In this document: positions 13,229 to 27,814 of the stretch, piece after piece
How positions within the stretch are numbered: the first letter of the stretch is position 1
Layout: each line of letters opens with the position of its first letter
Made by a program: the position numbers and the translations under genes
Assembly: GCA_050950285.1 (NCBI GenBank)
Contig: JBMNHG010000003.1
Coordinates: 372,001 to 428,336 of the forward strand
Length of the DNA: 56,336 bases
Direction: 5' to 3'
From: Kiritimatiellia bacterium
Lineage (GTDB): Bacteria > Verrucomicrobiota > Kiritimatiellia > RFP12 > JBMNHG01
The notes under the pieces: model-generated
The model's database searches: none
The model's input: the letters and a program-made list of their open reading frames with translations, nothing else
Told to the model about the DNA's origin: nothing

Positions 13229-14170
13229 GTGAGTAAATTTTTGTCTGTCATAATAGCGAATTATAATTATGGGCGTTTCCTTTCGGAAGCGGTCGAGTCG
13301 CTGCTGGCGCAATCATGCCAAGATTTTGAGATCATAATTTGTGATGCGGCAAGTACGGACAATTCAGTCGATGTGATTACGAAGTACGCCGGCGGCTTGC
13401 CCCCGAATACGGAAAGAGAATCCTCAAACGAGCATTTTGATCTCGCGCCTTCTCCGATAACCTATTGGTGCTCCGAGAAAGACGGCGGGCAAAGCGCTGC
13501 CTTTAACAAGGGCTTTTCACATGCGCACGGGCGTTTTCTGACTTGGTTAAACGCAGACGATGTGATGCTTCCTGGTACGATCGAGCGATTGAAGCGCGCC
13601 GCGGAGAAGTTCCCGTCGTGCGAGTGGTTTGTGGGTGGCGTTTTGTGGCTGGATCCGGAGATGAGGATTCTCAATTGCGGGCGGGGACGACCATTTTCGG
13701 AAATCAGATATCGGGAGGGGAATGTCAGTGTTTGGGGCCCGAGTTCTTTTTTCACCAAGCGTCTTTTGGACGCCGTCGGCGGTGTGGACGAGCGCTTTCA
13801 CTATACGATGGATACGGATCTTTGGCTGCGGTTCGCGAGCAAGGCTGGCGCGCGGTATCGCCCGTTTTGCGATTATGCCTGGGGATTGAGGCTGCACCCA
13901 GACGCGAAGATGAGCGGACACAACTTCCTGGCGGATGGAAGGATTGACACGTCACGCCCGCAGGAGCAACGGCGCGCTTGTAGTAAGCACAGAGATCAGA
14001 TGGATCAGGAATCAGAATGGCGTAAAGAATATTTCCACGCTCGCAAGGGGAACCGCATAACACATTTGCTGTCGGCATCATGGCTTAATGTGCTCCGCGC
14101 ACGGATCGATTTGTTGCGATGGCGGAACAAATGCCTGAGCTCTGTCATTGGGAAATGGGGTAATGAATGA
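13229..14170 (+). CDS. Glycosyltransferase family 2
   Basis: SVIIANYNYGRFL, DAASTDNS, EKDGGQSAAFNKG, WLNADD, MDTDLWLR; GTG start. Confidence 0.93.
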   Translation: MSKFLSVIIANYNYGRFLSEAVESLLAQSCQDFEIIICDAASTDNSVDVITKYAGGLPPNTERESSNEHFDLAPSPITYWCSEKDGGQSAAFNKGFSHAHGRFLTWLNADDVMLPGTIERLKRAAEKFPSCEWFVGGVLWLDPEMRILNCGRGRPFSEIRYREGNVSVWGPSSFFTKRLLDAVGGVDERFHYTMDTDLWLRFASKAGARYRPFCDYAWGLRLHPDAKMSGHNFLADGRIDTSRPQEQRRACSKHRDQMDQESEWRKEYFHARKGNRITHLLSASWLNVLRARIDLLRWRNKCLSSVIGKWGNE

Positions 14171-15303
14171 GAGTCGCTTTTATCTCAAACCACCCCGCTC
14201 CGTATCGTGATGCATTTCTTTCTCGCCTTGTTTCGGCGATGCAAGGACAGTTGACCGTGTTCTCGGAACTGCCTTGTGATACTGGACATCCCTTTTGGGA
14301 ATTGGACAAGCCTGATTATGTGGCGGAGGTTTTGGTTCCAGCGGGGACGGCAAAAACGACGGCTTGTTATGTGTTTATGAGACGTTTTGTCTTTGGCCCA
14401 TACGACTTTGTCATGTGGCCGGGCATCATGAAGCCCTACATCATTATTCCGCTGATTGTAAGTGCCGTGCTTGGTCGGAAATATGGATTTGTTGCGGATA
14501 CCGTTCGACAACGGCGTATTCCGGTGTGGGCAAGATGGATCAAGTCGTTTATCGTTCATCGGGCTTCCATGATCTTTGTGCCTGGTGCTGCCGGGCGAGC
14601 TTTTTGGATGAATGAATATGGGGTTTCAGCAGAGCGAATTTGTGTTGGCGCCTATGCTTTGGACGGCGAGGACCTTGAACGGAAGATTTTAGATAAACGC
14701 GCGGCGGAAAAGGGGCGCTTGCGAATGGAGATTCGCGCGGGCATTGGTGTATCTCCGGAAGATACGATGTACCTGATGGTTGCAAACATGATTCCCACGA
14801 GACATTATCCGATAACCACAGAAGGGTTTTTAAAATTTCACGAGAAACATGGTCAAAGCAAGTTTGTAATTGTCGGCCGAGGGCCAGATCTGGAAACCAT
14901 GCAGCTGCTTGCCAAGACGAATCCGGCAATAATTGTTATCCCAGGATGTTCGTTTGCAGAAATGTTGGATCTATATGTGGCCGCAGATGTGTATGTCCAT
15001 GGAGGTTGCGAGCCTGCTTCCACCGCACTGGTAGTCGGAGCGATTGCCCACCTGCCATTATTGACAAGTGAAGCGGTCGGCTGTTCCCATGATTGCCTCG
15101 AGGATGGACAGTCCGGCTTCTCTGTTGTATCATACTTGGATCCAGATTCATGGCATCAAGCTTTTGAAAAACTGTTCCTGCATAGAGAGCGATGGGGGGC
15201 TATGGGCGACGTCGCAAGGGATCGCTCACGAGCCTTGGACGTTTCGACGTGTGTGAACGATTTTATATCAAAGATTCAATCGTCGATACACGAGAGAGGC
15301 TGA
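14167..15303 (+). CDS. Glycosyltransferase family 4 (GT-B fold), divergent
   Basis: NHPAPYR, FVIVGRGPD, LYVAADVYV, EPASTALVVGA, TSEAVGC; ATGA overlap with the GT2 gene. Confidence 0.82.
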   Translation: MRVAFISNHPAPYRDAFLSRLVSAMQGQLTVFSELPCDTGHPFWELDKPDYVAEVLVPAGTAKTTACYVFMRRFVFGPYDFVMWPGIMKPYIIIPLIVSAVLGRKYGFVADTVRQRRIPVWARWIKSFIVHRASMIFVPGAAGRAFWMNEYGVSAERICVGAYALDGEDLERKILDKRAAEKGRLRMEIRAGIGVSPEDTMYLMVANMIPTRHYPITTEGFLKFHEKHGQSKFVIVGRGPDLETMQLLAKTNPAIIVIPGCSFAEMLDLYVAADVYVHGGCEPASTALVVGAIAHLPLLTSEAVGCSHDCLEDGQSGFSVVSYLDPDSWHQAFEKLFLHRERWGAMGDVARDRSRALDVSTCVNDFISKIQSSIHERG

Positions 15304-15401: not shown

Positions 15402-16727
15402 ATGAGTACTATGTACATCCGTTTCTGTTCCAACATGATGTTTGCGTTCAAAGAGCTTTGGATGCATCCTGGGCTAGGGAAGACGCTCGAGTCTCAAATG
15501 CAGAACGACAGCATGACTCGCGACCAGATCGTAGAACTGCAGCAAGACAAACTGAAGCGGCTTTTGTCGCATGCCGCCCAAACCGTGCCTTATTATCGCG
15601 AATATTTTTCCCACAAGAAACATGATTTGACCTGTCTTTCACTTGGCGACTTCCCCGTTGTCGGGAAGAATGATATCCGTGGACACGAAAAAGACTTTGT
15701 GTCGGATGTGTATGATATGAGGGAGCTCGTCCGCAATCGAACTAGCGGCAGCACGGGAGAGCCTTTTATGTTTTTCAGGAAAAAGGACGAGCTTGTGATA
15801 TCGTATGCGGATTTGTGGCGAGGCCTGGCGCGTTTCGGCATTCGACCAGGAGACAAGCGCGTGTTGGTAAAAGGGGTTGACGAGGGACGGCAAGTGTCGG
15901 TTCCGAAACGCATGAAGCGTTTCATCTACGGCTGGATGAATCGCTGTTTGTTGATTGACGCCCACTTTCTCGCGGCGAGCCCTGGCCATATCGGGGAAGT
16001 GATTCGTCGGATCGTGAGGTATCGTCCGTCCTATTTTCATGGTTATGCGTCCTCGATTTGCGATATTGCGCTGTACGCCGAATCCCATGGTATCGACATG
16101 CGGAGCTTGAACCTGAAGGCGGTTGTAACGGAATCCGAGAAGCTCTACGATTTTCAAAGGGAGGTGCTGAGTCGAGTCTTCGCATGCCCGGTTGTGGAGA
16201 ATTACGGCTCGGTCGAATTCGGCATGATTGCCCAGCCTTCACGCGATGGAGAGCTTTGTATCAATGAGGATCATGTCTTTGTTGAAACGGATACAGATGG
16301 CTCGGCAATAATCACGAACCTTGACGCCTATGCCTTCCCTCTGATCCGCTTCAAGAATGGCGACGCACTGGAATTGGGAGGGCTTTCCAAGACGTTGCCA
16401 TATCGGACGATCAAAAAAATTGAGGGGCGCATGGCCGAACGCATCAAGCTCCCGAACGGGGGTTATTTGCAGGGCTTTGTCGTCATGTATCCGATTTATA
16501 CATTCGGGAAATACATTCAGGCCTATCAGGTACACCAAACGGATCTGGAGCATGTTGTCCTTCGAATCGTAGAGCGCGACAAAATGCCGGAATCCATTTT
16601 ACTTGAAATCACGGACGGAATGCTGAAACTTCTCGGGGATGAAGTTGATTTTAGGGTCGAGTTTGTGGAAAGCATTCCGCTGTCAAAGCGGGGCAAGCGC
16701 CTTTTTGTGTGTTCGGACGTACAATGA
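15402..16727 (+). CDS. CapK/phenylacetate-CoA-ligase-like adenylate-forming enzyme
   Basis: VPYYRE, TSGSTGEP, HGYASS, ENYGSVEFG, FPLIRFKNGD, IEGR, GKR near the C-terminus. Confidence 0.9.
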   Translation: MSTMYIRFCSNMMFAFKELWMHPGLGKTLESQMQNDSMTRDQIVELQQDKLKRLLSHAAQTVPYYREYFSHKKHDLTCLSLGDFPVVGKNDIRGHEKDFVSDVYDMRELVRNRTSGSTGEPFMFFRKKDELVISYADLWRGLARFGIRPGDKRVLVKGVDEGRQVSVPKRMKRFIYGWMNRCLLIDAHFLAASPGHIGEVIRRIVRYRPSYFHGYASSICDIALYAESHGIDMRSLNLKAVVTESEKLYDFQREVLSRVFACPVVENYGSVEFGMIAQPSRDGELCINEDHVFVETDTDGSAIITNLDAYAFPLIRFKNGDALELGGLSKTLPYRTIKKIEGRMAERIKLPNGGYLQGFVVMYPIYTFGKYIQAYQVHQTDLEHVVLRIVERDKMPESILLEITDGMLKLLGDEVDFRVEFVESIPLSKRGKRLFVCSDVQ

Positions 16728-17938
16728 CGGAGGTGTTTATGAATGTGACTATCGTTGGCGGGGGCAATAGCGCGCATGTCGCGATCGCAATGCTGTCTGC
16801 GACGGGTTATCATGTTTCGCTGCTGACACGACATGTTGAAAAGTGGCAAAACGTTGTCACGGCTGAGTATCAACGTTCTGATGGCAGCGTTGTTTCCGAG
16901 ACAAAAGGGCACCTGGAAATGGTTTCGTCTGATCCGCAACAGGTTATCCCTCATGCCGATTTGATCCTGTTTTGCCTCCCGGTTGCTAAATATCGACTGA
17001 AACTCGATGAAATCGGGCCGCATATCGACAACAAAAGGCTTGTTGTTGTGGCTTCGGTGTATGGACAGGCGGGTTTCAACTGGATGGTTGAAGAGATGAA
17101 GGAAAAGTATGCCTTGGATAAAGTCGCTTACTTTTCTTACGGCCTAATTCCATGGATTGCGCGCACGAAAGATTATGGGCGCCGCGGGATTACATATGGA
17201 GGCAAGCAGGTAAACGTTGTCGCTCAATCTCATGGATTTGATGTGCTGGATTGGGCTCCAACGCTTTTGGACGACCTTGGCACTCGGCTGTTTGGTTGTG
17301 GCGAGACGGTGGTTATAAACGATTTTATATCCTTGACCCTGTCTGTCGACAACCAGGTAATTCACCCATCGAGGTGTTACGGATTATATCAGGAAGCGCC
17401 TGAAGGATGGTCGCAATGCGAAGATGTCCCGCTTTTCTATCGTGATTATACGGATGAGTCGGCCGATTATCTTTCGCGTTTGGATCAAGATTTCGAAAGT
17501 GTCCGCGCCCGAATCCGTTCGATGTGTCCGAATCGGGAATTCAAGTATATGCTTAATTATCTTGACTTGGAACATGTGACATATAAGTCTCGGTCTACGT
17601 CCATTAAAGACTCATTTGTCAATTCCCCGACGCTTACGGCGATTTCCACTCCAGTTGAATTCAATGAGGTTACAAATCGCTGGGAATTGATTAAGCACCA
17701 TCGTTTTTTTAACGATGATACGCAATATGGCATTTGCATTGTTAAGTGGTTTGCGGATCAGTTGAAGATTGAGACCCCTATGATCGATGCCATTCTGCGC
17801 TGGGTCGAAGAGTTTAAGAATCAAAGATTTTTAAGCGATTCCAATCGGCTTTTACTTGACAGCCCTGATATTGTTGCGCCGTTTGCATCGGGGGTTCCGA
17901 TCGTATATGGATTTGCACGTGTCGAGGACGCCTTGTAG
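16724..17938 (+). CDS. NAD/NADP-dependent octopine/nopaline (opine) dehydrogenase family protein
   Basis: VTIVGGGNSAH Rossmann motif, PWIAR, NQVIHPSRCYG, PLFY, HRFFNDDTQYG, ETPMIDAILRW; ATG at 16724 overlaps the ligase stop. Confidence 0.85.
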   Translation: MTEVFMNVTIVGGGNSAHVAIAMLSATGYHVSLLTRHVEKWQNVVTAEYQRSDGSVVSETKGHLEMVSSDPQQVIPHADLILFCLPVAKYRLKLDEIGPHIDNKRLVVVASVYGQAGFNWMVEEMKEKYALDKVAYFSYGLIPWIARTKDYGRRGITYGGKQVNVVAQSHGFDVLDWAPTLLDDLGTRLFGCGETVVINDFISLTLSVDNQVIHPSRCYGLYQEAPEGWSQCEDVPLFYRDYTDESADYLSRLDQDFESVRARIRSMCPNREFKYMLNYLDLEHVTYKSRSTSIKDSFVNSPTLTAISTPVEFNEVTNRWELIKHHRFFNDDTQYGICIVKWFADQLKIETPMIDAILRWVEEFKNQRFLSDSNRLLLDSPDIVAPFASGVPIVYGFARVEDAL

Positions 17939-17958
17939 GACAGCATGATCGGGCTCTT

Positions 17959-19083
17959 GTGAAAGTCCTTCATATTATATCTTCTGTTTCCCGGGATGGA
18001 GGCGGCCCGGCGAGATCTTCACAGGGGCTAGTCGCGGCGTTGAATGCCGTGGAATGTGAAACATGGCTGGCGAGCTGCCGTGCCGGGGATGTGCCGTGGC
18101 TGGATGGCGTATCGCATTTCGCGGCGCCGAACGGCGGGGAGAAACTGGATGGCTTTTTCTCGCGGATGATCGATGAAGTGAAGCCCGATCTTATTCATCT
18201 TCACGGCATTTGGGGATGGAAGATCCATCTCGCGGCAAAAATGGCGCGACAGAAATGCGTGCCGTACATCATCGCGCCGCGAGGCATGCTCGAGCCGTGG
18301 TCGCTTGCCCAGAAGAAGTGGAAGAAGCGCCTCGCGATGTGGCTGTTTCAACGTCGTGATCTCCAGTGTGCTGCGGCGCTTCATGCGACCGCCGAAAGTG
18401 AGGCGGAACAGTTCCGTAAGCTGGGATTCGGGAACAAGATCATCGTCTCGCAGAACGGCGTCAATCTTCCGACGAAATCCATCCATGCTTCCACGCCAGC
18501 TTCCGACTCCAATGCAGAGCCCCGCCGGGCTCTTTTTGTCAGCCGCATGCATCCCAAGAAGGGTGTGCTCGAATTGGTCGAGGTGTGGGCGAAAGCTCGG
18601 CTGGAAGGTTGGGTCTGTGAACTTGTTTATACACTCAATGGTGAAGAGGAGCTGGCGTACGAAGCCAAGGTAAGGGCCCGAGTGAAAGAACTAGGGTTAA
18701 GCCAGTCTTTCGTGTTTACCGGAGCCCTTGACGACGAAAGGAAGTGGGAGGCTTACGGCAGGGCGGATCTGTTCGTTCTCCCGACGTACAGCGAGAACTT
18801 CGGAATCGTTGTGGCAGAGGCGTTGTGGGCCGGCGTTCCGGTCATTACGACGAAGGGCGCTCCATGGGAAGAGCTTGAAAGCCGTCAATGCGGGTGGTGG
18901 ATCGATTTGCCGCCTACGAATTCCCTCATGGAGGCGTTGACGGCCGCGACAGTTCTGCCGCGGAATGAATTGGTCTCCATGGGTCAGAACGGGAAGCGAC
19001 TGGTCGAGGAAAAATATACCTGGAAGGCGGTTTGTGAAAAGATGATCGCCGGGTACAAGGAGGTGCTGGATGGCAAAGCTTGA
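17959..19083 (+). CDS. Glycosyltransferase family 4
   Basis: GGGPARS, HLHGIW, PRGMLEPW, SRMHPKKG, ADLFVLPTYSENFGIVVAEAL. Confidence 0.95.
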   Translation: MKVLHIISSVSRDGGGPARSSQGLVAALNAVECETWLASCRAGDVPWLDGVSHFAAPNGGEKLDGFFSRMIDEVKPDLIHLHGIWGWKIHLAAKMARQKCVPYIIAPRGMLEPWSLAQKKWKKRLAMWLFQRRDLQCAAALHATAESEAEQFRKLGFGNKIIVSQNGVNLPTKSIHASTPASDSNAEPRRALFVSRMHPKKGVLELVEVWAKARLEGWVCELVYTLNGEEELAYEAKVRARVKELGLSQSFVFTGALDDERKWEAYGRADLFVLPTYSENFGIVVAEALWAGVPVITTKGAPWEELESRQCGWWIDLPPTNSLMEALTAATVLPRNELVSMGQNGKRLVEEKYTWKAVCEKMIAGYKEVLDGKA

Positions 19084-19222
19084 TTTGGCGCATCATCGGG
19101 ATCCCCATTTTCGTCGACAGGGCCGAAGGTACGGAAATTGAACAGGGCACCCCCGCCACGAACGCGTCCGTTCGTGTAAGAGGGAGGTTGCGCGGGAGGC
19201 GGGGTTGGGGTATCGTCCGGGC

Positions 19223-19879
19223 ATGAACGTTGTTTGCCTGGGCGACAGTATCACGGGACAGCCGAATCTCCGGTTGTTCATGAAGTATCCGCAGATCCTC
19301 GACTGCATGCTGGAGGCGCGTCTGGGGCCGGGCGCGGCGACGGTCGTGAACCGCGGCATCGCCGGCGACACCACGCAGGGGGCGCTCCGGCGGCTGCAAG
19401 GGGATGTCCTGGATCTGCGGCCGGACATCGTGACCGTCCTGCTGGGCGGCAACGACGGGTGCCAGAAGATCGACCCGGCCGTCACCCGTGCGAATCTCGG
19501 GGAGATCGTGCGGCGGCTTCAGGCGATGGGCGCGAAGGTGTTGCTGATGCAGTACCACTGCCTTCCCCATCCGGATCATCCGGAAACGGCCTGGCGTCTC
19601 CTGCAGGCGAACAACGCCCTCATCGGCGAAGTCGCCGCTGCGGCGGGCGTCCCCTGCCTGGACCTCGCCGCGCCGTTTGATGCGGCATGCCGCGGGCCCG
19701 TCACCTGGGAGCTGTGCGGCCGCGACGACGCCACGGGAGTTGCCGAGTGGCGCGAAACGCCCATGACGCAGGGGCATCTGGTGAGCGAGACGGACGGCGT
19801 CCATCTGAATCCCGGCGGCGAACTGGTCGTCGCCCGCGCCATCTTCGCGAAAGGGCTCGCCCTGGGCTGGATTCCGTGA
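19223..19879 (+). CDS. SGNH/GDSL hydrolase family protein
   Basis: GDSIT, NRGIAGDTT, GGND, DGVHLN; TATCGT 6 nt before the ATG suggests a leaderless start. Confidence 0.92.
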   Translation: MNVVCLGDSITGQPNLRLFMKYPQILDCMLEARLGPGAATVVNRGIAGDTTQGALRRLQGDVLDLRPDIVTVLLGGNDGCQKIDPAVTRANLGEIVRRLQAMGAKVLLMQYHCLPHPDHPETAWRLLQANNALIGEVAAAAGVPCLDLAAPFDAACRGPVTWELCGRDDATGVAEWRETPMTQGHLVSETDGVHLNPGGELVVARAIFAKGLALGWIP

Positions 19880-19943
19880 CCGCCGCGCCGGTTGCCGCCG
19901 GAACGCGGGGATGGGCCCCGCCTTCCGCCTTTCTGTTATGGCT

Positions 19944-21782
19944 TCACTCCCGCAGTTGTTCTTTCCGCAGGGAGGCGTAGAGGCCGTCGGGGTCTGCCAT
20001 GAGTTCGGCGTGGGTGCCGCTTTCGGCGATCCGGCCGTCTTCAATCACGAGGATGCGGTCGGCATGGACCACGGTGGAGAGGCGGTGGGCGATGACGAAG
20101 CAGGTGCGGCCGCGCATGAGGACGGCGAGGGCGTCCTGGATTTGGTGTTCCGCGTAGGAATCCACCATGGAGGTGGCTTCGTCCAGCACGAGGATGCGGC
20201 GGTCGGCGAGGAGGGCGCGCGCGATGGAGAGGCGCTGGCGCTGTCCGCCGGAGAGCTTCACGCCGCGCTCGCCGATGTGGGTGTCGTAGCCTTGGGGGAG
20301 GGCGGCGATGAACTCGTCGGCGTAGGCGGCGCGCGCGGCGGCGCGGAGGTCGTCTTCGGAGGCGTCGGGGCGGGCGTAGCGGAGGTTGTCGGAGACGGTG
20401 CCGTCGAAGAGGAAGGCGTCTTGGGGCACGAAGGCCATCTGGCTCCGGAGGGAGGCCTGGGTGACGTGGCGGAGGTCGTGGCCGTCGATGGTGATGCGCC
20501 CCGATTCGGGGTCGTAGAAGCGTGCCACGAGGTTCACCAGGCTGGTTTTCCCGGCGCCGCTGCGTCCGACGAGGGCGATGGTCTGGCCGGGTTCCGCGGT
20601 GAAGGAAATGCCGTCGAGGACCTTCGCTTCGGGGGTGTAGCGGAAGGAGACGTCTTCGAAGGCGACGCGGCCCCGGATGGTATCGAGCGCGATGGCGTCG
20701 GGGGCGTCCGACACGTCGGGGGAGGCGTCGAGGATCTCGGCGACGCGTTCGCCGGCGGCGAGGCATTGGAGGGCGTGGTTGTAGGTGTGGAAGAGGGCGC
20801 CGATGGGGCGGTAGAGCTGCATGGCGTAGGTGCTGAAGGCGAAGAGGTCGCCCACGGAGAAGGTCGAGCCGGGCTGGAGGATGCGGTAGGCGCCGGCGCC
20901 GATGACGAGCAGGCCGCCGAAGCCGTGGAGGAATCCCATGAAGGGCCAGGCCACGGAGGAGAGGCGCGCCGCCTTCACCTGGGCGTCGTAGACGTCCGCG
21001 ATGGTGGCGCCCACGGCGTCGCGCTCGCGGTCGTCCGCATGGAAGGCCTTGATCACGCGGATGCCGGAGATGTTGTCCTGCACCTTCGCCTGGAAGAGGC
21101 CGATGCGGTCGCGCATGGCGCGGTAGAGGGGGCGGATGGTGGTGCTGAACCAGCGCATCAGCAACACGAGGAGGGGGACGGGGACGAGGGCGACGAGGGC
21201 GAGGCGCCAGTCGAGCCAGAAGAGGAGCACGAGGGTGACGGCGAGGTTCAGGACGTCGTGGACGAGGCGGTCGCCGATGAACGAGATGACCTCCTCGAGC
21301 GAGCCGACGTCGCCGGAGACGCGCGAAACGATGTCGCCGCTGGGCCGGGATTCGAAGAAGCGGAGGGAGAGTCCCTGGAGGTGGTTGTAGACGTGGGCGC
21401 GGAGGTCGCGCACGAACGAGGCGCAGGCGCTCCGGATGACCCATCCATGGACGCTTCCGACGAGGGCGGCGGCGAGGGCGATGCCGAACATGGCGGCGGT
21501 GGCGAGGCCCGCCTGCCGGTAGAGGGAGGAGCGCAGCGCGGCGTCGCCGGCGATGGAGGGGGCCTTGGCGAGCACGTCGTCCACGAGCCAGCGGGTGATC
21601 AGCGGGTTCGCCTTGTCCAGCGCCAGCCCGGCGAGCAGGCAGGCGAGGCCGGCGAGGATGGCTCCGGTGCGGGGGCGGATGAAGGGCCACAGCATCTTCG
21701 CGAGGAGGCGGAAGCTTTGGCGGAGCGGAAGCTGGGGGCGGCGCGGCCTGCCGTGGTGGTGGCGGTGGTGGCCGTTGGGCAT
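19944..21782 (-). CDS. ABC exporter, fused permease and ATPase (MsbA/MdlB type)
   Basis: Hydrophobic N-terminal half; GRSGAGKT, LSGGQRQR, ILVLDEAT, IAHRLST; start coupled to the exosortase stop (TGATG). Confidence 0.94.
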   Translation of the reverse strand: MPNGHHRHHHGRPRRPQLPLRQSFRLLAKMLWPFIRPRTGAILAGLACLLAGLALDKANPLITRWLVDDVLAKAPSIAGDAALRSSLYRQAGLATAAMFGIALAAALVGSVHGWVIRSACASFVRDLRAHVYNHLQGLSLRFFESRPSGDIVSRVSGDVGSLEEVISFIGDRLVHDVLNLAVTLVLLFWLDWRLALVALVPVPLLVLLMRWFSTTIRPLYRAMRDRIGLFQAKVQDNISGIRVIKAFHADDRERDAVGATIADVYDAQVKAARLSSVAWPFMGFLHGFGGLLVIGAGAYRILQPGSTFSVGDLFAFSTYAMQLYRPIGALFHTYNHALQCLAAGERVAEILDASPDVSDAPDAIALDTIRGRVAFEDVSFRYTPEAKVLDGISFTAEPGQTIALVGRSGAGKTSLVNLVARFYDPESGRITIDGHDLRHVTQASLRSQMAFVPQDAFLFDGTVSDNLRYARPDASEDDLRAAARAAYADEFIAALPQGYDTHIGERGVKLSGGQRQRLSIARALLADRRILVLDEATSMVDSYAEHQIQDALAVLMRGRTCFVIAHRLSTVVHADRILVIEDGRIAESGTHAELMADPDGLYASLRKEQLRE

Positions 21783-23482
21783 CAGCGGGACTCCTTGCGG
21801 GCGGCGTCGAAGGCGGCGGCGAAGCGCGCCATGCCGGCCTCGGCCCGCGCGATGTCCGGCAGGCCGTCGGCCCGAACCGGGATGTCGCAGGTGAGGGTGA
21901 CCATCGACCACCGGGTGATGCGGTTGCGGAAGGCGCGGTCTTTCACGCTGGTCAGGATGCGCTGGAGGTGGGAGTCGGTCACGAAGCCTTTGCTTTCGAA
22001 CCAGTAGGCGTGCAACTGGAAGGAATTTCCGGACTCCGGGCGGATCACGAGGGTCCGCGCGGAGAACGACGACCCGTCGGGGCGGGGGATGGTGATTCCG
22101 GACTCGCGATCGATGGAGTAGCCTTGGGCGGGGATGCACATTTCGGGACGGTGGATGCTGGTCCGGCGCTCGCCGTTCACGACCACGTTCACGATGATGG
22201 AGCGATCCCCCTGGGCATACACGCGCTTCTCGATGAGGGTGTCGTCGGGAAGGATGCGGCGTTCGCCGGGGGAGACCGTGTCCAGGGGCCCGCCGCACTC
22301 CGGGCAGGGATGCGAGGCGCGGAAGGCGCCGTCGAAGACCGCGCCGGCTTCCAGGATCTCGAAATATCCGCACTGTTCGTCCTGGCAGAAGAGGGGGCGG
22401 CGCGCCTCTTCGCCGGTGGGGAGGCGTTCGGGCATGGGGAACATCACCCCTTCCTGCGACTCGATGACGGGGGGCGGCATGGACCGGAAGGCCACGAGCA
22501 TCGTGGCCATGGCGGCGAGAAGGGCGACGATGCCGGCCCAGCGGAAAGGCGCACGGGGGGGCGCCGCTTCGACGGACGGCGGGGCCTCCTCGCCGTCCTG
22601 CGCGGTATCGGGCGCCTCCTCGCCGTCCGCCCCCTTCTTCCCATCCTTTTCGAGCCAGGCGCCGACGGCCACCATGAGGAAGATGGCCACGATGAAGACG
22701 ACGTAGCCGGAGTAGTCGTGGTAGAAGCCGACGCCGAAGTCCTGTCCGAAGAAGCGGGCGACCACGGCGATGGTGAAGACGCGCATGATGTTGCCGATCA
22801 CGGCGAGGGGCACGGAGCAGGCGAAGAGGAACCAGCGCTTCCAGGTTTTCGTCTGCGTGAGGTAGGCGTAGGCGGCGGTGACCGCCATCAGCGCGAAGAG
22901 GGAGCGCAGCCCGCTGCACGCCTCCGCCACATCCAGGTTGAAGGGGCCTTCCGGAGTGGTGGAGACCAGGCCGGAGCCGACGCGGACGACGGAGATGCCG
23001 ATGCCGTTGAGCAACACGCTGGCGACCCGGGTGACGAGGAGGCGCAGGCGCACCGTGCTGAGGAACCCGAGGGGCACCGTGAAGAGCATGTAGGCGGCGG
23101 GGAAGGCCACAAGCCGCCCGAGGCGGCGCCCCCATATGGCGCAGGGGAGGGCCCAGAGCATCAGGATGAAGGCGAGCTGGCTGAAGCGCACCTGGCCGCC
23201 GCGTTCGCCGAGCCACAGCAGGGCGAGCGACGCGAAGGCGCCCAGGATGCCCAGCCAGGACGGCGGCGCGCCGCGGGCGGCGGCGGCGAGTTCCTTCCGC
23301 TGGCGCCAGAGGAGGTACAGCGAGAAGAGCGGGATGTACCAGCCGTGGGCCATGTCCTCCGTCTCGTCCAGGAAGGTGTCCCGCATGAAGACGAAGACCC
23401 GCTGGAAGAGGAGGCAGGCCAGGAGGGCGCCCACGATGAAGATCGCGATGCGGAAGAAGCGTGCTCGGGAGGAGGAGGGCAT
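21782..23482 (-). CDS. Exosortase fused to an EpsI-like domain
   Basis: DMAHGWYIP, VAEACSGLRSL, GNIMRV, FYHDYSG give the Cys/Arg/His triad; C-terminal RTSIHRPEMCIPAQG and YWF. Confidence 0.9.
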   Translation of the reverse strand: MPSSSRARFFRIAIFIVGALLACLLFQRVFVFMRDTFLDETEDMAHGWYIPLFSLYLLWRQRKELAAAARGAPPSWLGILGAFASLALLWLGERGGQVRFSQLAFILMLWALPCAIWGRRLGRLVAFPAAYMLFTVPLGFLSTVRLRLLVTRVASVLLNGIGISVVRVGSGLVSTTPEGPFNLDVAEACSGLRSLFALMAVTAAYAYLTQTKTWKRWFLFACSVPLAVIGNIMRVFTIAVVARFFGQDFGVGFYHDYSGYVVFIVAIFLMVAVGAWLEKDGKKGADGEEAPDTAQDGEEAPPSVEAAPPRAPFRWAGIVALLAAMATMLVAFRSMPPPVIESQEGVMFPMPERLPTGEEARRPLFCQDEQCGYFEILEAGAVFDGAFRASHPCPECGGPLDTVSPGERRILPDDTLIEKRVYAQGDRSIIVNVVVNGERRTSIHRPEMCIPAQGYSIDRESGITIPRPDGSSFSARTLVIRPESGNSFQLHAYWFESKGFVTDSHLQRILTSVKDRAFRNRITRWSMVTLTCDIPVRADGLPDIARAEAGMARFAAAFDAARKESR

Positions 23483-23514
23483 GGGAAAGTGTCCTGGGGC
23501 GGGATGGAGGGGCT

Positions 23515-25467
23515 TCACGCCGGAGGCCCCGGGTCCGCCGGGGCGGCGGCCGCCGCATTCCCGAAGGTGTTTTCGGGGACGAACCGGGCGATGGCGCGGC
23601 GGGTCTCGTCGTCGGGCGCGGCGCGCCCGCACAGTTCGCCGCAGCATGCGAGCATCTCCGCGACGGCCTCCGGGGCGGGGGCGGCGATGCGCCCGATGAA
23701 GACGCGCGGGAGGCGGGTCCGGTCGGCATGCTCCTCGCGCGTGCTGAGTTCCTCGAAGAGCTTTTCGCCGGGACGCAGGCCGGTGAAGACGATCGGGATG
23801 TCCTCGTAGGGGCGCAGTCCGGAGAGCCGGATCATCTCCGTTGCGAGTTCGACGATGCGGATGGGTTCGCCCATGTCGAGGATGAAGATCTCGCCGCCGG
23901 CGGCGATGGACGCGGCTTCGAGCACGAGACGGCAGGCCTCGGGGATGGTCATGAAATAGCGCTGCATGTCGGGATGGGTCACCGTCACCGGCCCTCCCGC
24001 GCGGATCTGCTCGCGGAAGAGGGGCACCACCGACCCCGAGGCGCCGAGCACGTTGCCGAAGCGCACGGCGGCGAAACGGGTGCTCCCCTCGCGGTTCAGG
24101 TCCTGGATCGCAAACTCGGCGAGGCGCTTGCTGGCGCCCATCACCGAGGAGGGCTTCACGGCCTTGTCGGTGGAGAGCTGCACGAAGACCTTCACGCCGG
24201 CCTTCACGGCCTCTTCGCCGAGCACGCGCGTGGCGAGCACGTTGTTGCGTATGGCCTCGGTCACGTTGCATTCCATCAGGGGCACGTGCTTGTGGGCGGC
24301 CGCGTTGAGCACGAAGCCGGGGCGGAAGCGCGCGAGCGCCTCCGCCACGCGGGCGCGGTCCGCGATGTCCCCCGCCACCGGGACCACCTCCACTCTCGCC
24401 TGTGCGGCGCGCCGCCGGAGGGCGCGGTGGATTTCGTGGAGGGCCGGTTCGCTCCGCTCGAAGAGGACGAGGCGCGAGGGGCCGAGGCGCATCACCTGCC
24501 GTGCGAGTTCGGAGCCGATCGAACCGCCGGCGCCGGTGACCATCACGCAGGTCCCGGCCACGAAGCGGGCGAGTTCGGCGTCGCTCGCCAAGTCGATTTC
24601 GTCGCGCCCGAGCAGGTCCGCCACGTCCACCTCGCGAAGCAGGCTGGGGTCGGGCGCGCCGCCCAGCATCTCGAAGATTCCGGGGGAGATGCGCACGGGA
24701 ACGCGGAGATCCTCGCAGTCGTGGACGATCGCGCGGATGACCTCGCGCCGGATGGGCGCGAGGGTCACGAAGACCTCGTTCGCCCCGAAACGCCGGATGG
24801 CATCGCGGAGCGCGGAGACGGGCCCCACCACGCGCACTCCTTGGAGGATGGCGTTCAGCCGCGCCGGATCGTCGTCGAGGAAGCCGACGACCTCCACGCC
24901 GTGCGCGCGGTTCTGGCGGAATTCGTGCGCCACGGCGTTCCCCGTGGTTCCCGCGCCGACGATGAGGACGCGCCGGACGGGGGCGTCCGCCTCATACGGG
25001 GCCTTCGCTTCGCCCTCCTGCGCGTTGCGCCCCTCGGAAACAAGGCGCCACAGCATGCGCACGAGCACCGCCCCGCCCAGGAAGAACACGCCGTTGAGGA
25101 TCGACACGCTCAGCGGCGGACGCCACCAGATGAACTTCCCCCCGCGCGTGAAAAGCCAGATCATCACGAGCACGAAGGTCGAGGAGCCCGCCGCCGCCAC
25201 CAGCCGCGGGACGTCGTACGCGCCGAAGAAGCGCCACACGATGCGGTGGCACCGGAAGGCGTACAGCGCCGCCACCTCCAGCACGATCACGGGGATCCAG
25301 TAGACGGTTACGGGTTCCCATCCATAGGCGGGGGGCTGGAAGTTGAAGCGAAGCGCGTGGGCGGCAAGGAAGGCCGCCACCATCACGGACAGGTCGGCCG
25401 CGAAGGTCGCCAGGGCCGTGCCGACGGGGCGTCGCCCGGCAAATCGATGTGGGAGGGATGCGCTCAT
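23515..25467 (-). CDS. CapD/PglF-like nucleoside-diphosphate sugar dehydratase
   Basis: N-terminal membrane segments, VLIVGAGTTG, DLLGRD, TGAGGSIGSEL, HKHVPLME, STDKAV, VRFGNVLGASGSV, GLRPGEKL. Confidence 0.94.
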   Translation of the reverse strand: MSASLPHRFAGRRPVGTALATFAADLSVMVAAFLAAHALRFNFQPPAYGWEPVTVYWIPVIVLEVAALYAFRCHRIVWRFFGAYDVPRLVAAAGSSTFVLVMIWLFTRGGKFIWWRPPLSVSILNGVFFLGGAVLVRMLWRLVSEGRNAQEGEAKAPYEADAPVRRVLIVGAGTTGNAVAHEFRQNRAHGVEVVGFLDDDPARLNAILQGVRVVGPVSALRDAIRRFGANEVFVTLAPIRREVIRAIVHDCEDLRVPVRISPGIFEMLGGAPDPSLLREVDVADLLGRDEIDLASDAELARFVAGTCVMVTGAGGSIGSELARQVMRLGPSRLVLFERSEPALHEIHRALRRRAAQARVEVVPVAGDIADRARVAEALARFRPGFVLNAAAHKHVPLMECNVTEAIRNNVLATRVLGEEAVKAGVKVFVQLSTDKAVKPSSVMGASKRLAEFAIQDLNREGSTRFAAVRFGNVLGASGSVVPLFREQIRAGGPVTVTHPDMQRYFMTIPEACRLVLEAASIAAGGEIFILDMGEPIRIVELATEMIRLSGLRPYEDIPIVFTGLRPGEKLFEELSTREEHADRTRLPRVFIGRIAAPAPEAVAEMLACCGELCGRAAPDDETRRAIARFVPENTFGNAAAAAPADPGPPA

Positions 25468-25585
25468 GGTTCGAAATCGGAAAGGTAGCAGAAACCCCGC
25501 GCCGTGGCAACCCGTCCGCCGGGCGGCGCGCCGCGCCGGTTCCGCCGCGCATCCATCCGGACGCCGGCGGGCGCGGGACGGCTCC

Positions 25586-26386
25586 CTACCCCAGGTCGAT
25601 CTCCAGCCCGTCGTAGGCCGGCTCGATGCCCGGCGGCAGGCGGGCGGAGAGGGTCGCATGGTCGACCTCGTGGCAGAGATGGGTCATCCAGGAGCGTTTC
25701 GCGCCAATCTTCCGGAGCAGTTCGAGCGAGGACTCGGTGGTGAGGTGGGTGGCGTGGGGGCGGCTGGGGCGCAAGGCGTCGAGCACCATCACGTCGAGAT
25801 CGCGGAGAAGGTCCATCGTCTCCGGCGGGATCGCGGAGCAGTCGGAGATGTAGGCGGCCGACGCACCGTCCGCCTCGAGCCGGAAGCCGGTCATCGCGCC
25901 CGTGCCGTGCACCACGGGGAGGGGGGTCGCCCGCAGTGTGCCGGGGGCGCCGTCGAAGGTGCGGATTTCGAAGGGTCCGGCGATTTCGCGGAAGTCGACG
26001 AGCGGGCGATAGAAGCCTGCGATGGGCGCGGTGTCGATGTAGTTGAAGATGCGCCGCATGCCGGCGAGCGTCTCCGGCACGGCGTAGGCCGGGATCACGG
26101 CATCCCCCTGCAGGGTGTTGAAGCGCCGGACGTCGTCGAACCCCATGACGTGGTCTGCATGGCAGTGGGAGATGAGCACGGCGTCCAGGCGGCGCAGCCC
26201 GATCCCGAGGGCCTGCTCGCGGAAGTCCGGCGGCGTGTCCACCACCACCCGCAGCGCGCCGGTGGAGACGAGGAGGCACGAGCGGCGGCGGCGGTTGCGC
26301 GGGTCGGTGGAGTGGCACACCGGGCAATCGCACCCGATCATGGGCACGCCCACGGAGGTACCGGTTCCGAGGAAGGTGAGTTTCAT
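25586..26386 (-). CDS. MBL-fold metallo-hydrolase (PhnP-like)
   Basis: LGTGTSVGVP, CDCPVC, SHCHADH, YISD, HATH, THLCH, AYDGL. Confidence 0.93.
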   Translation of the reverse strand: MKLTFLGTGTSVGVPMIGCDCPVCHSTDPRNRRRRSCLLVSTGALRVVVDTPPDFREQALGIGLRRLDAVLISHCHADHVMGFDDVRRFNTLQGDAVIPAYAVPETLAGMRRIFNYIDTAPIAGFYRPLVDFREIAGPFEIRTFDGAPGTLRATPLPVVHGTGAMTGFRLEADGASAAYISDCSAIPPETMDLLRDLDVMVLDALRPSRPHATHLTTESSLELLRKIGAKRSWMTHLCHEVDHATLSARLPPGIEPAYDGLEIDLG

Positions 26387-26412: not shown

Positions 26413-27717
26413 TCAGCCGACGATGCGCAGTTTCGAGGGCCCGGCGCCGAGGATGCCGGAGGCGGCGATGTCCGCAAGGGCGGCGTCGAGATCGGCTTCC
26501 ACGGAAGGGGCGGTGATCACCACCACCGGCACGAAGGGGCCGGCGTCGGCTCCTCCATCCTTCTGGATCACGGCGGAGATCGAGACGCCGCGCGCGCCGA
26601 GTGCGGTGGAAAGCGTCCCCAGGGTCCCGGGCACGTCTTTCACGGCGAGCCGCAGGTAGTAGCGGGAGGTGATCTCGGCGAGCGGGCGAATGCGGCGCGC
26701 CGCGCCGGCGAGCGGAATCCCGCGGGCGTGGCGGGGACTGCCGGCGGCGAGCCCTCGGGCCACATCCGCGATGTCGGAGATGACCGTCGACGCCGTGGGG
26801 GCGCGGCCCGCCCCCCGCCCGTAGTGGAGCGTGTCGCCCGAAAGGTCGCCGGTGAACATCACGGCGTTGAAGACGCCCGACACCGAGGCGAGCATGTGGC
26901 CCAGCGGAATCAGGGCGGGATGGACGCGCACTTCGATGTCGCCTTCGTCGCCGCCCGCTATCACGGCGAGCAGTTTGATGCGGTAGCCGAGTTCGCGGGC
27001 GAAGCGGACGTCGAGGCCGTCGAGGCCGCGGATGCCTTCCACCGGCACATCCGCCAGCGGCACGTGGAATCCGTAGGCGAGCGACGCGAGGATGGTGGCC
27101 TTGTGGGCCGTGTCGTGGCCATCGATGTCCAGCGCGGGATTGGCCTCGGCATAGCCGAGTTCCTGGGCCTCGGCAAGCACCTGCTCGAAGGGGAGGCCCT
27201 CGCCCTCCATGCGGGTGAGGATGTAGTTGCAGGTGCCGTTCAGGATGCCGAGGACGCGACGGAAGCGGTTGCCCGCGAGCGCTTCGCGCGCCACGCGGAT
27301 CACGGGGATGCCGCCGCCGACGGAGGCGCCGAAGCCGAGGTCGACCCCCTTTTCCGCCGCCAGGGAGAAGAGTTCGTCGCCATGCTCGGCGAGGAGTTTC
27401 TTGTTGGCGGTGACCACCGGCTTGCCGGCCTGGAGGGCCTCGGTCATCAGCGTGCGGGCGATGCCCGAGCCGCCGATCAGCTCGACCACGATGTCCACCG
27501 ACGGATCGGCGATGACCTCGCGGGCGTCGGTGGTGAGCAGGGAGGAATCCACCTCCACCCCGCGGTCGGTCGTGATGTCGAGGTCGCCGATGCGGCGGAC
27601 CACGAGGTCGATGCCGAGACGGGACGCGAGAAGATCGCGATTTTCCTGAAGACCCTGGAAGACGCCGGCGCCGACCGTGCCGAATCCGAGAAGACCCACG
27701 CCAAATTGTTTCATCAT
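26413..27717 (-). CDS. hom: Homoserine dehydrogenase with ACT domain
   Basis: GLLGFGTVG, VVTANK, ASVGGGIP, GILNGTCNYIL, DGHDTAHK, GRGAG; C-terminal ACT domain. Confidence 0.96.
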   Translation of the reverse strand: MMKQFGVGLLGFGTVGAGVFQGLQENRDLLASRLGIDLVVRRIGDLDITTDRGVEVDSSLLTTDAREVIADPSVDIVVELIGGSGIARTLMTEALQAGKPVVTANKKLLAEHGDELFSLAAEKGVDLGFGASVGGGIPVIRVAREALAGNRFRRVLGILNGTCNYILTRMEGEGLPFEQVLAEAQELGYAEANPALDIDGHDTAHKATILASLAYGFHVPLADVPVEGIRGLDGLDVRFARELGYRIKLLAVIAGGDEGDIEVRVHPALIPLGHMLASVSGVFNAVMFTGDLSGDTLHYGRGAGRAPTASTVISDIADVARGLAAGSPRHARGIPLAGAARRIRPLAEITSRYYLRLAVKDVPGTLGTLSTALGARGVSISAVIQKDGGADAGPFVPVVVITAPSVEADLDAALADIAASGILGAGPSKLRIVG

Positions 27718-27724
27718 GGGGGGA

Positions 27725-27733
27725 AGAATAACA
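27725..27733 (-). promoter_or_regulatory. Extended -10 (TG-T-TATTCT) 7 nt upstream of the hom ATG; probable leaderless transcript
   Basis: Minus strand reads TTTGTTATTCTTCCCCCCATGATG with no Shine-Dalgarno. Confidence 0.55.
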
Positions 27734-27814
27734 AAGGGATGGGTCGGACGCAAGCGCGGGGCGGGAAACGCGGGTGTTCGGTTGGTGGAAGGGGCAGATG
27801 CTCCAGAAGGACCG

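Follow-up and report, generated by a model that had tools for sequence, protein, structure and literature searches.

In a 56,336-nucleotide stretch of a Kiritimatiellia genome (the window), a gene for a CapK/PaaK-like ligase lies next to a gene for an opine dehydrogenase (ODH) in a glycan island, and this adjacency of ODH and ligase genes recurs in glycan loci of the same ODH subfamily. It is quite probable that some opine-type amide is placed on a glycan in this way. The more specific reading, in which the ligase amidates a uronic acid with an (R)-N-(1-carboxyethyl) amino acid formed by the ODH, is favored with moderate confidence.

A low-GC glycan island with a ligase-ODH pair

The genes of the island are ordered GT2-GT4-ligase-ODH-GT4, with the ligase first and the ODH second of the pair. 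The five genes have a GC content of 47 to 57% (GC3, 0.49 to 0.65), compared to 66 to 71% (GC3, 0.82 to 0.89) in four flanking genes, and form a foreign-looking glycan cassette. A GDSL gene at positions 19205 to 19879 was left out of the island (GC, 68%).

Features of the island and of the ligase-ODH junction, in window positions
Feature	Position	Strand	Remarks
GT2 glycosyltransferase	13229..14170	+	PF00535, E 1e-23; GC 53%; first gene of the island
GT4 glycosyltransferase	14167..15303	+	PF00534, E 1.2e-9; 4-nt overlap with the GT2 stop
CapK/PaaK-like adenylate-forming ligase (putative)	15402..16727	+	441 aa; PaaK fold, motifs intact
Ligase-ODH junction	16724..16741	+	ATGA 16724-16727, GGAGGT 16729-16734, preferred ATG 16739
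Opine dehydrogenase (ODH)	16739..17938	+	PF02317, E 2.1e-22; ~400-aa subfamily
GT4 glycosyltransferase	17959..19083	+	PF00534, E 4.4e-23; last gene of the island

An earlier, sequence-only reading had described the pair as flanked by GT2 and GT4 genes, and Pfam searches confirmed this (PF00535 once, PF00534 twice). The same reading had the ligase and ODH genes overlapping by an ATGA. The tetranucleotide is present, but the real start of the ODH is probably the in-frame ATG 11 nt past the ligase stop, with no overlap, because a GGAGGT ribosome-binding site precedes it and the protein collection stores the ODH in a 399-aa form (P0001). A contig of DNA run X11, a run not marked as a possible source, bridges the junction (16137 to 17140) with 0 differences; thus, the junction did not arise from misassembly. 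No joint skipping the island was seen in four DNA runs aligned to the window. Promoter and terminator scans gave matches at chance level only. The island holds no uronate-making gene, flippase, or polymerase; elsewhere in the same genome, C8 has a gene resembling UDP-glucose dehydrogenase, and C4 has another low-GC island, which includes Wzx and Wzy.

The only close orthologue of the ligase among the sampled genomes was in G052 (49% identity), where the ligase gene is followed by genes for an ODH (45% identical) and a GT4 (32% identical), so that the ligase-ODH-GT4 order is kept across two classes of the phylum. The G052 operon has a full Wzx/Wzy set, a TviB-like UDP-GlcNAc dehydrogenase gene, and a DegT gene. 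No further close ligase was found in 301 genomes of the window's own class or 301 of the class of G052; thus, the reverse test, from ligase subfamily to ODH, rests on G052 besides the window.

The two predicted enzymes

The ligase gave no Pfam match in the profile search of window ORFs, and its seven NCBIfam matches (PaaK, F390, and DVU_1553 families) were all under cut-offs; it was rejected as an equivalog of the phenylacetate-CoA ligase PaaK (TIGR02155; 37.7 bits versus a cut-off of 646). Among PDB sequences it matched PaaK (E 2e-10), and its AlphaFold model (pLDDT, 91.7) has a PaaK/NatL2-like fold. The T114-G119 loop (TSGSTG), Y268-G269-x-x-E272, D321, G342-R343, and K432, which we take to be the P-loop, the YGxxE motif, the ribose-binding Asp, the hinge GR, and the C-terminal Lys, are all kept, in columns conserved in 46 to 55 of 55 alignment rows. 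Fold and motifs, as judged from sequence and model, are those of a PaaK-like adenylate-forming ligase. The protein belongs to a subfamily of its own (∼90 clusters, 48 to 57% identity), one member of which is named from Victivallis lenta (P0254), and it shares 26.5% identity with a plasmid-encoded protein whose annotation reads "capsule biosynthesis protein CapK." Cap1K of the Staphylococcus aureus type 1 capsule is reportedly associated with a taurine amide link; the literature search found no proven reaction for any CapK-like glycan ligase.

The ODH scored 80 bits against PF02317 (cut-off, 30) and has the Rossmann motif VGGGNSAH at residues 6 to 13 (GxGxxA/G). Scallop octopine dehydrogenase was its sole match among PDB sequences (E 1.6e-19) and the best fold match of its model (pLDDT, 92.8; TM, 0.80 to 0.83). 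Residues Q110, H209, R322, and D327 correspond to scallop Q118, H212, R324, and D329, and the His-Asp dyad and Arg sensor (H209, D327, and R322) were found in 45 of 45 rows. The domain and the catalytic residues of the predicted protein are therefore those expected of an opine dehydrogenase.

In the scallop enzyme, arginine is bound by Glu142 and Trp278 (PMC2924402). The window ODH has Gly135 in place of Glu142 (Gly in 42 of 45 rows) and Asn273 in place of Trp278 (Asp/Asn in 45 of 45), the latter mapping being less sure because the position adjoins a gap in the pairwise alignment; D204 is invariant in the rows, and residue 278 is acidic throughout. The replaced arginine-binding residues, together with the invariant D204 and the acidic residue 278, speak against octopine and would fit a substrate that carries an amine. 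An octopine dehydrogenase proper, acting on arginine and pyruvate, was rejected, as the guanidinium pocket is missing. PMC4575208 describes octopine-type enzymes as condensing at the N2 (alpha) amine; an ODH product linked through the epsilon amine would therefore be out of the ordinary. An opine metallophore or siderophore enzyme was also rejected, the neighbors being GT2, GT4, and ligase genes, and no nicotianamine synthase, IucA/IucC, or receptor gene was found among the window ORFs scanned. A 22%-identical ODH in P. mirabilis, by comparison, adjoins IucA/IucC and TonB-receptor genes.

Adjacency of ligase and ODH genes across loci

The ODH subfamily was sampled at 82 loci, with L003 (a weak 58-residue match) dropped before all counts. 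A ligase gene stood directly beside the ODH in 25 of the 26 loci with at least two glycan genes and in 3 of the 29 glycan-free loci with at least four neighbors. These counts come from non-independent loci, which were also the source of the HMMs used for labelling. All 33 ligase-bearing loci had the ligase adjacent. The other 49 mostly lacked glycan genes as well and had the same active-site signature. When gene order was shuffled for the 21 dereplicated ligase-bearing loci, 6.6 ± 1.8 were adjacent, compared to the observed 21, a value reached in 0 of 20,000 shuffles. The expected co-occurrence in polysaccharide clusters was thus borne out. Conservation of the pair as first described, an ODH with a CapK-like ligase, was upheld for the ODH-ligase unit but not for the ligase family: the partners fell into four classes, TupA (PF14305), ST (PF14397), RimK/LysX-like ATP-grasp, and CapK-like, the last in just 6 of 82 loci. 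TupA ATP-grasps directly adjoin the ODH in 7 of 21 ligase-bearing groups, and the window's own genome has no ATP-grasp of the three other partner classes.

Partners can differ between closely similar ODHs, as in L042 and L053 (97.5% identical) and in L013 and L018 (95.5%), and the CapK-linked ODHs of L026 and L031 are 70 to 72% identical to ATP-grasp-linked ones; the ODH active-site motifs are uniform whatever the partner ligase. An identical ODH has a ligase beside it in L055; in L052, a shorter contig, no ligase was detected. Because of this difference and the repeats nearby, the ODH gene looks mobile. The window ODH, just 44 to 50% identical to any relative, is on a long branch of the FastTree tree, and its nearest neighbors there (L054, L046, L019, L021, L102, and L103) lack an adjacent ligase. 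A genome-collection scan with the single window ODH gave 3 loci, namely L003 and two Bacilli loci without ligase or glycan genes, and there was no close ODH in 40 related genomes. Among the 21 ligase-bearing groups, whose loci are truncated, a Ugd-type gene was seen in just 5 and the amino-sugar genes DegT and FdtA in 3 each. A distant ODH subfamily is located after an NTP-transferase-aminotransferase fusion near LicD or by aminoethylphosphonate genes.

A homologue of the RimK-like partner (36 to 46% identity, 14 of 15 matches) is present in Escherichia coli plasmid capsule loci (NZ_AP027746.1 and NZ_JCAPTY010000003.1), in a setting with wecA, a flippase, glycosyltransferases, an epimerase, and a nucleotide-sugar dehydrogenase (ugd). 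It overlaps a gene whose name, N(5)-(carboxyethyl)ornithine synthase (CEOS), comes from automatic annotation; the product belongs to the AlaDH/PNT family and is unrelated to the ODH (E 0.40), with close relatives named from Shewanella, Providencia rettgeri, and Aeromonas. The N5-(carboxyethyl)ornithine synthase of Lactococcus is said to act on the side-chain amines of lysine and ornithine and to give an (S) product. The CEOS in the ODH slot points to carboxyethyl-lysine or -ornithine for at least one ligase class. Within the window's phylum, CEOS-like genes were found in 2 of 401 genomes, neither in a glycan locus, and there was none in the window's own genome; among the ODH loci, only L023 had a CEOS fragment.

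Proposed mechanism and comparison with known systems

In the following scheme, we infer the substrates of both enzymes, the polarity of the amide, the cofactor, and the modified glycan. The island would give a surface polysaccharide of the Wzx/Wzy type a decorated segment. The ODH would use NAD(P)H to reductively condense pyruvate with an amino acid that has a second amine, most likely lysine or ornithine, and the product would be an (R)-N-(1-carboxyethyl) amino acid. Adenylation of the C6 carboxyl of a repeat-unit uronic acid would fall to the CapK-like ligase, which would then form an amide with the remaining free amine of the opine; in an alternative order, the amino acid may be ligated first and carboxyethylated afterwards. 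Two parts are drawn from the literature: R-selectivity, a family trend of PF02317 enzymes (PMC10787698), and amidation of a uronate by a TupA ATP-grasp. According to PMC11800379, the TupA-like domain of Cj1438 couples serinol-P or ethanolamine-P as an amide to the C6 carboxylate of capsule GlcA. The sequence-only reading, in which the ligase forms the amide link of the opine to a sugar, needs correcting by this precedent, in which the glycan uronate and not the small molecule is activated. The broader proposal of that reading, that an ODH and an amide ligase decorate surface glycan, agrees with the 25 of 26 glycan loci but does not cover the 49 ODH loci with no ligase nearby.

It is unlikely, though conceivable on several grounds, that the amide has the opposite polarity, with the ODH making alanopine or strombine, which have no free primary amine, and the CapK-like enzyme adenylating the opine carboxyl to acylate an amino sugar such as Qui4N. 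Small acids are adenylated by enzymes of the PaaK family, for which there are PDB complexes containing phenylacetyl adenylate and salicylate; PMC10787698 cites an alanopine dehydrogenase of metagenomic origin, and PMC10609480 gives alanopine on Qui4N in P. alcalifaciens O35. However, that alanopine is (S,S), the same ODHs partner TupA ATP-grasps, whose characterized member activates a uronate, and one partner class pairs with the CEOS beside ugd. The DegT and FdtA genes in ligase-bearing groups, and DegT in the G052 operon, are consistent with an amino-sugar acceptor, but acetyltransferases by the DegT genes could explain those amino sugars.

That the module is real and has another product seems improbable. 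The ODH would then use taurine, beta-alanine, an ethanolamine-type amine, or another 2-oxo acid, e.g., 2-oxoglutarate, to give a substituent so far undescribed. The departures from the scallop pocket at Glu142 and Trp278, the low identity of the window ODH to its relatives, the contexts of the distant subfamily, and the beta-alanopine enzymes of the mollusc/annelid-type family (PMC4575208) would fit this, whereas the active-site motifs do not vary with the partner, carboxyethyl-lysine or -ornithine is indicated by the CEOS swap for at least one ligase class, and the island has no gene for synthesis of a special amine or keto acid. About equally doubtful is an ODH that rides in the cassette as a metabolic passenger, acting as a redox sink or in opine catabolism, with the ligase adding an ordinary amino acid or amine independently of it: the ODHs without a ligase, the apparent mobility of the gene, and the absence of an ODH within 1.5 kb at 28 of 28 generic CapK-like loci, which means that the CapK-like class does not need an opine, speak for it, but four ligase classes directly adjacent at glycan loci, the shuffle test, the unrelated opine synthase filling the same slot in E. 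coli, and the ligase-ODH-GT4 order kept across two classes speak against it.

Returning to the uronate amide, the gene pairs offer named candidates for both steps of opine decoration, together with a stereochemical prediction, and a first handle on the roles of CapK-like proteins in polysaccharide loci. If true, this would be a third biosynthetic role for ODHs beside crown-gall opines and metallophores. More tentatively, there may be a general interchangeable module in which a PF02317 ODH (R) or a CEOS-type enzyme (S) feeds any of the four ligase classes and the distant ODH subfamily supplies a phosphodiester route of the CDP/LicD type. One scheme would then account for the (R)- and (S)-carboxyethyl-lysine, alanopine, and carboxyethyl-ethanolamine-phosphate of O-antigens, such groups would be predicted in many unstudied anaerobes, and the window pair would be its first version with an adenylate-forming ligase. 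In Proteus and Providencia, (R) carboxyethyl forms occur in serogroups other than the two considered below.

The window ODH shares its two-domain fold and catalytic residues with Pecten maximus octopine dehydrogenase (PDB 3C7A/3C7D/3IQD; PF02317) but is only ∼20% identical, has the arginine-binding residues replaced, and is bacterial, located in a glycan island, and by context biosynthetic rather than fermentative. Staphylopine, pseudopaline, and yersinopine dehydrogenases and siderophore-cluster ODHs also use the ODH fold biosynthetically, although these make diffusible metallophores. The ligase has the fold and adenylation motifs of the PaaK family (BT_0428, PaaK1/2, NatL2, and AjiA1), with at most 24% identity in structural alignments.

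PMC10609480 describes N-epsilon-[(S)-1-carboxyethyl]-L-lysine in P. rustigianii O14, where it is amide-linked to GalA, and dates opine-bearing O-antigen structures to at least 2003 (its refs 48 and 58). The link first drawn to these antigens holds for the proposed type of product, an opine attached through an amide to a surface glycan, but both the O14 and O35 opines are (S) and PF02317 enzymes are R-selective (PMC10787698); for the two Providencia structures, an enzyme of CEOS type is the better candidate. A search of openly accessible papers found none assigning genes to opine-bearing O-antigens, and the main text of PMC5560731, on Proteus clusters, contains neither "opine" nor "carboxyethyl" nor a gene for these groups. 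The E. coli CEOS takes the same slot beside the RimK-like ligase class as the ODH, with an unrelated protein. The Campylobacter jejuni Cj1438 system has the same logic as that proposed for the window, in which an enzyme that makes the amine and an amide ligase driven by ATP are encoded together in a polysaccharide locus. Here, the island has three glycosyltransferases, and the Ugd-like gene and Wzx/Wzy lie elsewhere in the genome. The window ligase was rejected as a member of Cj1438-type modules because it has the adenylate-forming PaaK fold and not a TupA-like ATP-grasp, and its amine partner is an ODH rather than a PLP enzyme; a similar way of working may nevertheless hold.

The gene pair and its island

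Both genes of the pair are real in-frame open reading frames, and Pfam confirmed the GT2 and GT4 genes that the sequence-only reading had placed around them. That reading also had the two genes overlapping in an ATGA; the frames do overlap at 16724-16727, but the start of the opine dehydrogenase (ODH) is taken to be, probably, the in-frame ATG at 16739, because a GGAGGT site lies upstream of it and the protein collection holds a 399-aa form. GC content was 47-57% in the five-gene island (GT2-GT4-ligase-ODH-GT4) compared to 66-71% in the four flanking genes measured, and the module was probably acquired horizontally. The ligase-ODH junction was bridged with zero differences by a contig from a sequencing run outside those flagged as possible sources. 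The stretch was matched only in DNA runs, chiefly digester and bioreactor metagenomes. Exosortase and CapD-like genes were found 2.7 kb past the island on the opposite strand, so that the island may act on a protein-linked glycan. Several RHS-repeat open reading frames and a second low-GC stretch were also present.

The pair consists of a PF02317 member and a member of the PaaK-like superfamily. By its predicted structure (pLDDT, 92.8) the first is an opine dehydrogenase; the best fold match was scallop octopine dehydrogenase (TM score, 0.80 to 0.83), also its sole PDB sequence match (E value, 1.6e-19), followed by CENDH and metallophore ODHs. It falls in a ∼400-aa subfamily with 561 matches, the best 120 of which, itself excepted, were 44-50% identical. 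Q110, H209, R322, and D327, conserved in 45 of 45 aligned rows, align with scallop Q118, H212, R324, and D329; a His-Asp relay, His212, and Arg324 of the scallop enzyme are described in the available text of PMC2924402, as are Glu142 and Trp278, which hold the guanidinium group. The Glu142 position is Gly in 42 of the 45 rows and the Trp278 position is Asp or Asn in all 45, and therefore the window protein is probably not an octopine enzyme proper. Beside these replaced positions, D204-N205-Q206 is invariant and residue 278 is acidic across the rows; the new acidic residues may bind an amine. NADPH use is hinted at by Arg/Ser where an acidic residue would otherwise follow the second strand.

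The ligase had no Pfam match, and each of its seven NCBIfam matches scored far under its cut-off. Its fold is PaaK-like in a PDB sequence match and the predicted model, all adenylation motifs are intact, and assignment to the PaaK or TupA type was rejected on those scores and that fold. It represents its own subfamily (about 90 clusters at 48-57% identity); the name "CapK-like" derives from a single protein annotated CapK, to which the ligase is 26.5% identical. CapK of Staphylococcus aureus has been linked to taurine; no literature support for that link was found.

Coordinates of features in the window and, where a locus or contig is named, elsewhere
Feature	Position	Strand	Remark
GT2	13229-14170	+	Pfam
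GT4	14167-15303	+	Pfam
CapK/PaaK-like ligase	15402-16727	+	first of pair
ODH	16739-17938	+	second of pair
GT4	17959-19083	+	Pfam
Exosortase EpsH/EpsI (DUF3485), CapD-like polysaccharide biosynthesis gene	21782-25659	-	
RHS-repeat ORFs	474-6011, 27714-29681, 31345-39045	-	one with Tle1-like phospholipase domain
Second low-GC stretch	30-33 kb		
Identical ODH copies	L055:7942-9271, L052:790-2119		
∼350-aa ODH loci	L104:6363-11048, L107:5809-11159, L108:239-4076, L109:5681-11031		L109 by similarity to L107 only
Distant ODH, phosphonate-type locus	L106:1943-7058		
E. coli plasmid capsule locus	L149:10846-21429 (NZ_AP027746.1), L157 (NZ_JCAPTY010000003.1)		IS-flanked; ATP-grasp and CEOS-like genes
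Second low-GC island, own genome	L143:7527-14641 (G000:C4, about 15500-22650)		Wzx, 4Fe-4S/FrhB-like protein, polysaccharide pyruvyl transferase, WecB, GT4 (sole GT), Wzy-like
High-GC GT2-GT4 pair, own genome	G000:C2:64705-66686 (L142)		
ATP-grasp, RraA-like aldolase, and amidohydrolase genes, G052 operon	L144:5411-8084		

Association of opine dehydrogenases with amide ligases

A metagenome scan gave 287 ODH relatives, and the best 80 of these plus L001 and L002 made up 82 loci, in which neighboring open reading frames were called mechanically and clustered, and the clusters were named by Pfam (98 representatives), PDB, and NCBIfam. Among these 82, an amide ligase directly adjoined the ODH in 25 of 26 loci with at least two glycan genes, the lone exception (L069) being a sequence that ends 13 nt past the match. 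The same was true of 1 of 5 loci carrying a single glycan gene, of 3 of 29 glycan-free loci that had at least four neighbors, and of 4 of 22 short glycan-free loci. Wherever the 82 loci contained a ligase (33/33), it was adjacent to the ODH, as confirmed by six-frame search. After grouping at 90% ODH identity (42 groups), the ligase was adjacent in 18 of 18 glycan-rich representatives. Gene-order shuffling of the 21 ligase-bearing groups gave 6.6 ± 1.8 adjacent pairs versus 21 observed, a value reached in 0 of 20,000 shuffles, although the loci are mutually related and the labeling HMMs were built from them, so that fewer independent events underlie the result than the test implies.

By group, the adjoining classes were TupA (7), RimK-like (7), CapK-like (5), and ST (4). 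Partners differed between near-identical ODHs: RimK-like in L042 versus TupA in L053 (97.5% identity), and likewise different in L013 and L018 (95.5%). The co-occurrence anticipated by the sequence-only reading thus held for amide ligases generally, but only 6 of the 82 loci (best 80 of 287 plus two) shared the window's arrangement, with a CapK-like gene immediately upstream of the ODH; the five full-length ligases among them were only 23-25% identical to the window ligase.

The ODH gene of L055 and L052 looks mobile, because an identical copy occurs in two different neighborhoods with ∼169-bp repeats nearby. PGA_cap (CapA-like) genes recurred within three genes of the ODH in L007, L008, L012, L014, L069, and L101, and also in L015, L017, and L033.

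A CapK-like match was found in 45 of 401 genomes of the phylum. Only one, G052, had a close ligase relative (49%); an ODH (45%) and a GT4 (32%) come after it, within a Wzx/Wzy operon that includes a TviB-like dehydrogenase. That operon also carries ATP-grasp, RraA-like aldolase, and amidohydrolase genes, which suggests a second acyl substituent pathway. In a further 28 CapK-like loci that were retrieved (25-31% identity), no ODH lay within 1.5 kb. Glycan-locus ODHs are thus nearly always accompanied by a ligase, whereas CapK-like ligases in general need no ODH.

Other putative opine synthases in glycan loci

A plasmid search with the RimK-like partner gave one match (42%), in an Escherichia coli capsule locus, where the homologue overlaps a gene annotated as N(5)-(carboxyethyl)ornithine synthase (CEOS), followed by flippase, GT, polymerase, epimerase, and nucleotide-sugar dehydrogenase genes. 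This AlaDH/PNT-family synthase is unrelated to the ODH by sequence comparison; an Aeromonas hydrophila protein matches it at 99% identity, and other close relatives are named from Aeromonas, Shewanella, Vibrio, Providencia rettgeri, and Edwardsiella. The pair occurred in 5 of 5,426 E. coli genomes, and the one chromosomal copy inspected was in a decayed island that retains fragments of flippase and amidoligase genes. Lactococcus CEOS modifies ornithine and lysine at their side-chain amines, giving an (S) product. That one ligase class has two unrelated opine synthases as neighbors is the strongest individual reason to take a carboxyethyl amino acid as the ligase substrate; this reasoning applies to the RimK-like class and extends to the window enzyme only via partner swapping.

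A distant ∼350-aa ODH subfamily was found directly after an NTP-transferase-class I/II aminotransferase fusion (CobD-like), near LicD genes, a candidate route to CDP-activated N-(1-carboxyethyl)ethanolamine phosphate. This phosphate group occurs in Proteus mirabilis O14. In L106, aminoethylphosphonate-type genes for PEP mutase-cytidylyltransferase, TPP decarboxylase, and class-V aminotransferase precede a distant ODH near GT genes; an N-carboxyethyl-aminoethylphosphonate glycan substituent is possible.

Proposed reaction and alternatives

No paper tying an ODH to glycan biosynthesis was found in the literature covered, which included parts of the main text of PMC5560731, PMC7685785, and PMC8611851; most subscription journals, the home of the Proteus and Providencia structures, were outside coverage. 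We modestly favor a reading in which the ODH would convert lysine or ornithine to its (R)-N-(1-carboxyethyl) derivative and the ligase would adenylate a uronate C6 carboxyl and then couple the remaining amine of the carboxyethyl amino acid to it. In the own genome, a UDP-glucose-dehydrogenase-like gene on C8 and the Wzx, Wzy, WecB, and pyruvyl transferase genes on C4 could plausibly supply the remaining steps; they may act on the same glycan, and the C4 island may complement that of the window. Elsewhere in the genome, a high-GC GT2 (39% identical to the window GT2) stands immediately before a GT4 (33% identical to the last GT4 of the island), with no counterpart of the island's three middle genes between them; this pair may be the native equivalent of the island.

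Several observations count against the favored reading. Octopine-type enzymes are described as acting on the alpha-amine (PMC4575208, in part); the product would then be lysopine, its epsilon-amine left free, and not the epsilon-linked group already known. In the available text of PMC10787698 the family is described as R-selective, while both opine-glycan structures in that of PMC10609480 are (S). The nearest tree neighbors of the window ODH lack an adjacent ligase, although its placement in this FastTree tree is a long-branch join. It is unlikely that the opine instead serves as acyl donor to an amino sugar, and use of another amine or keto acid by the module seems quite improbable. Least probable is that the ODH is a passenger, which would fit the 49 of 82 loci (best 80 of 287 plus two) without a ligase, whose ODHs bear the same motifs, a point also against the favored reading.

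Coupling to a uronate is modeled on Cj1438 of Campylobacter jejuni, a precedent for the C6 amidation step (PMC11800379, in part), and on the Providencia rustigianii O14 structure, a precedent for carboxyethyl-lysine on a glycan (PMC10609480, in part). The window module may work like a uronate-amidation system in which the ODH is the amine-supplying enzyme.
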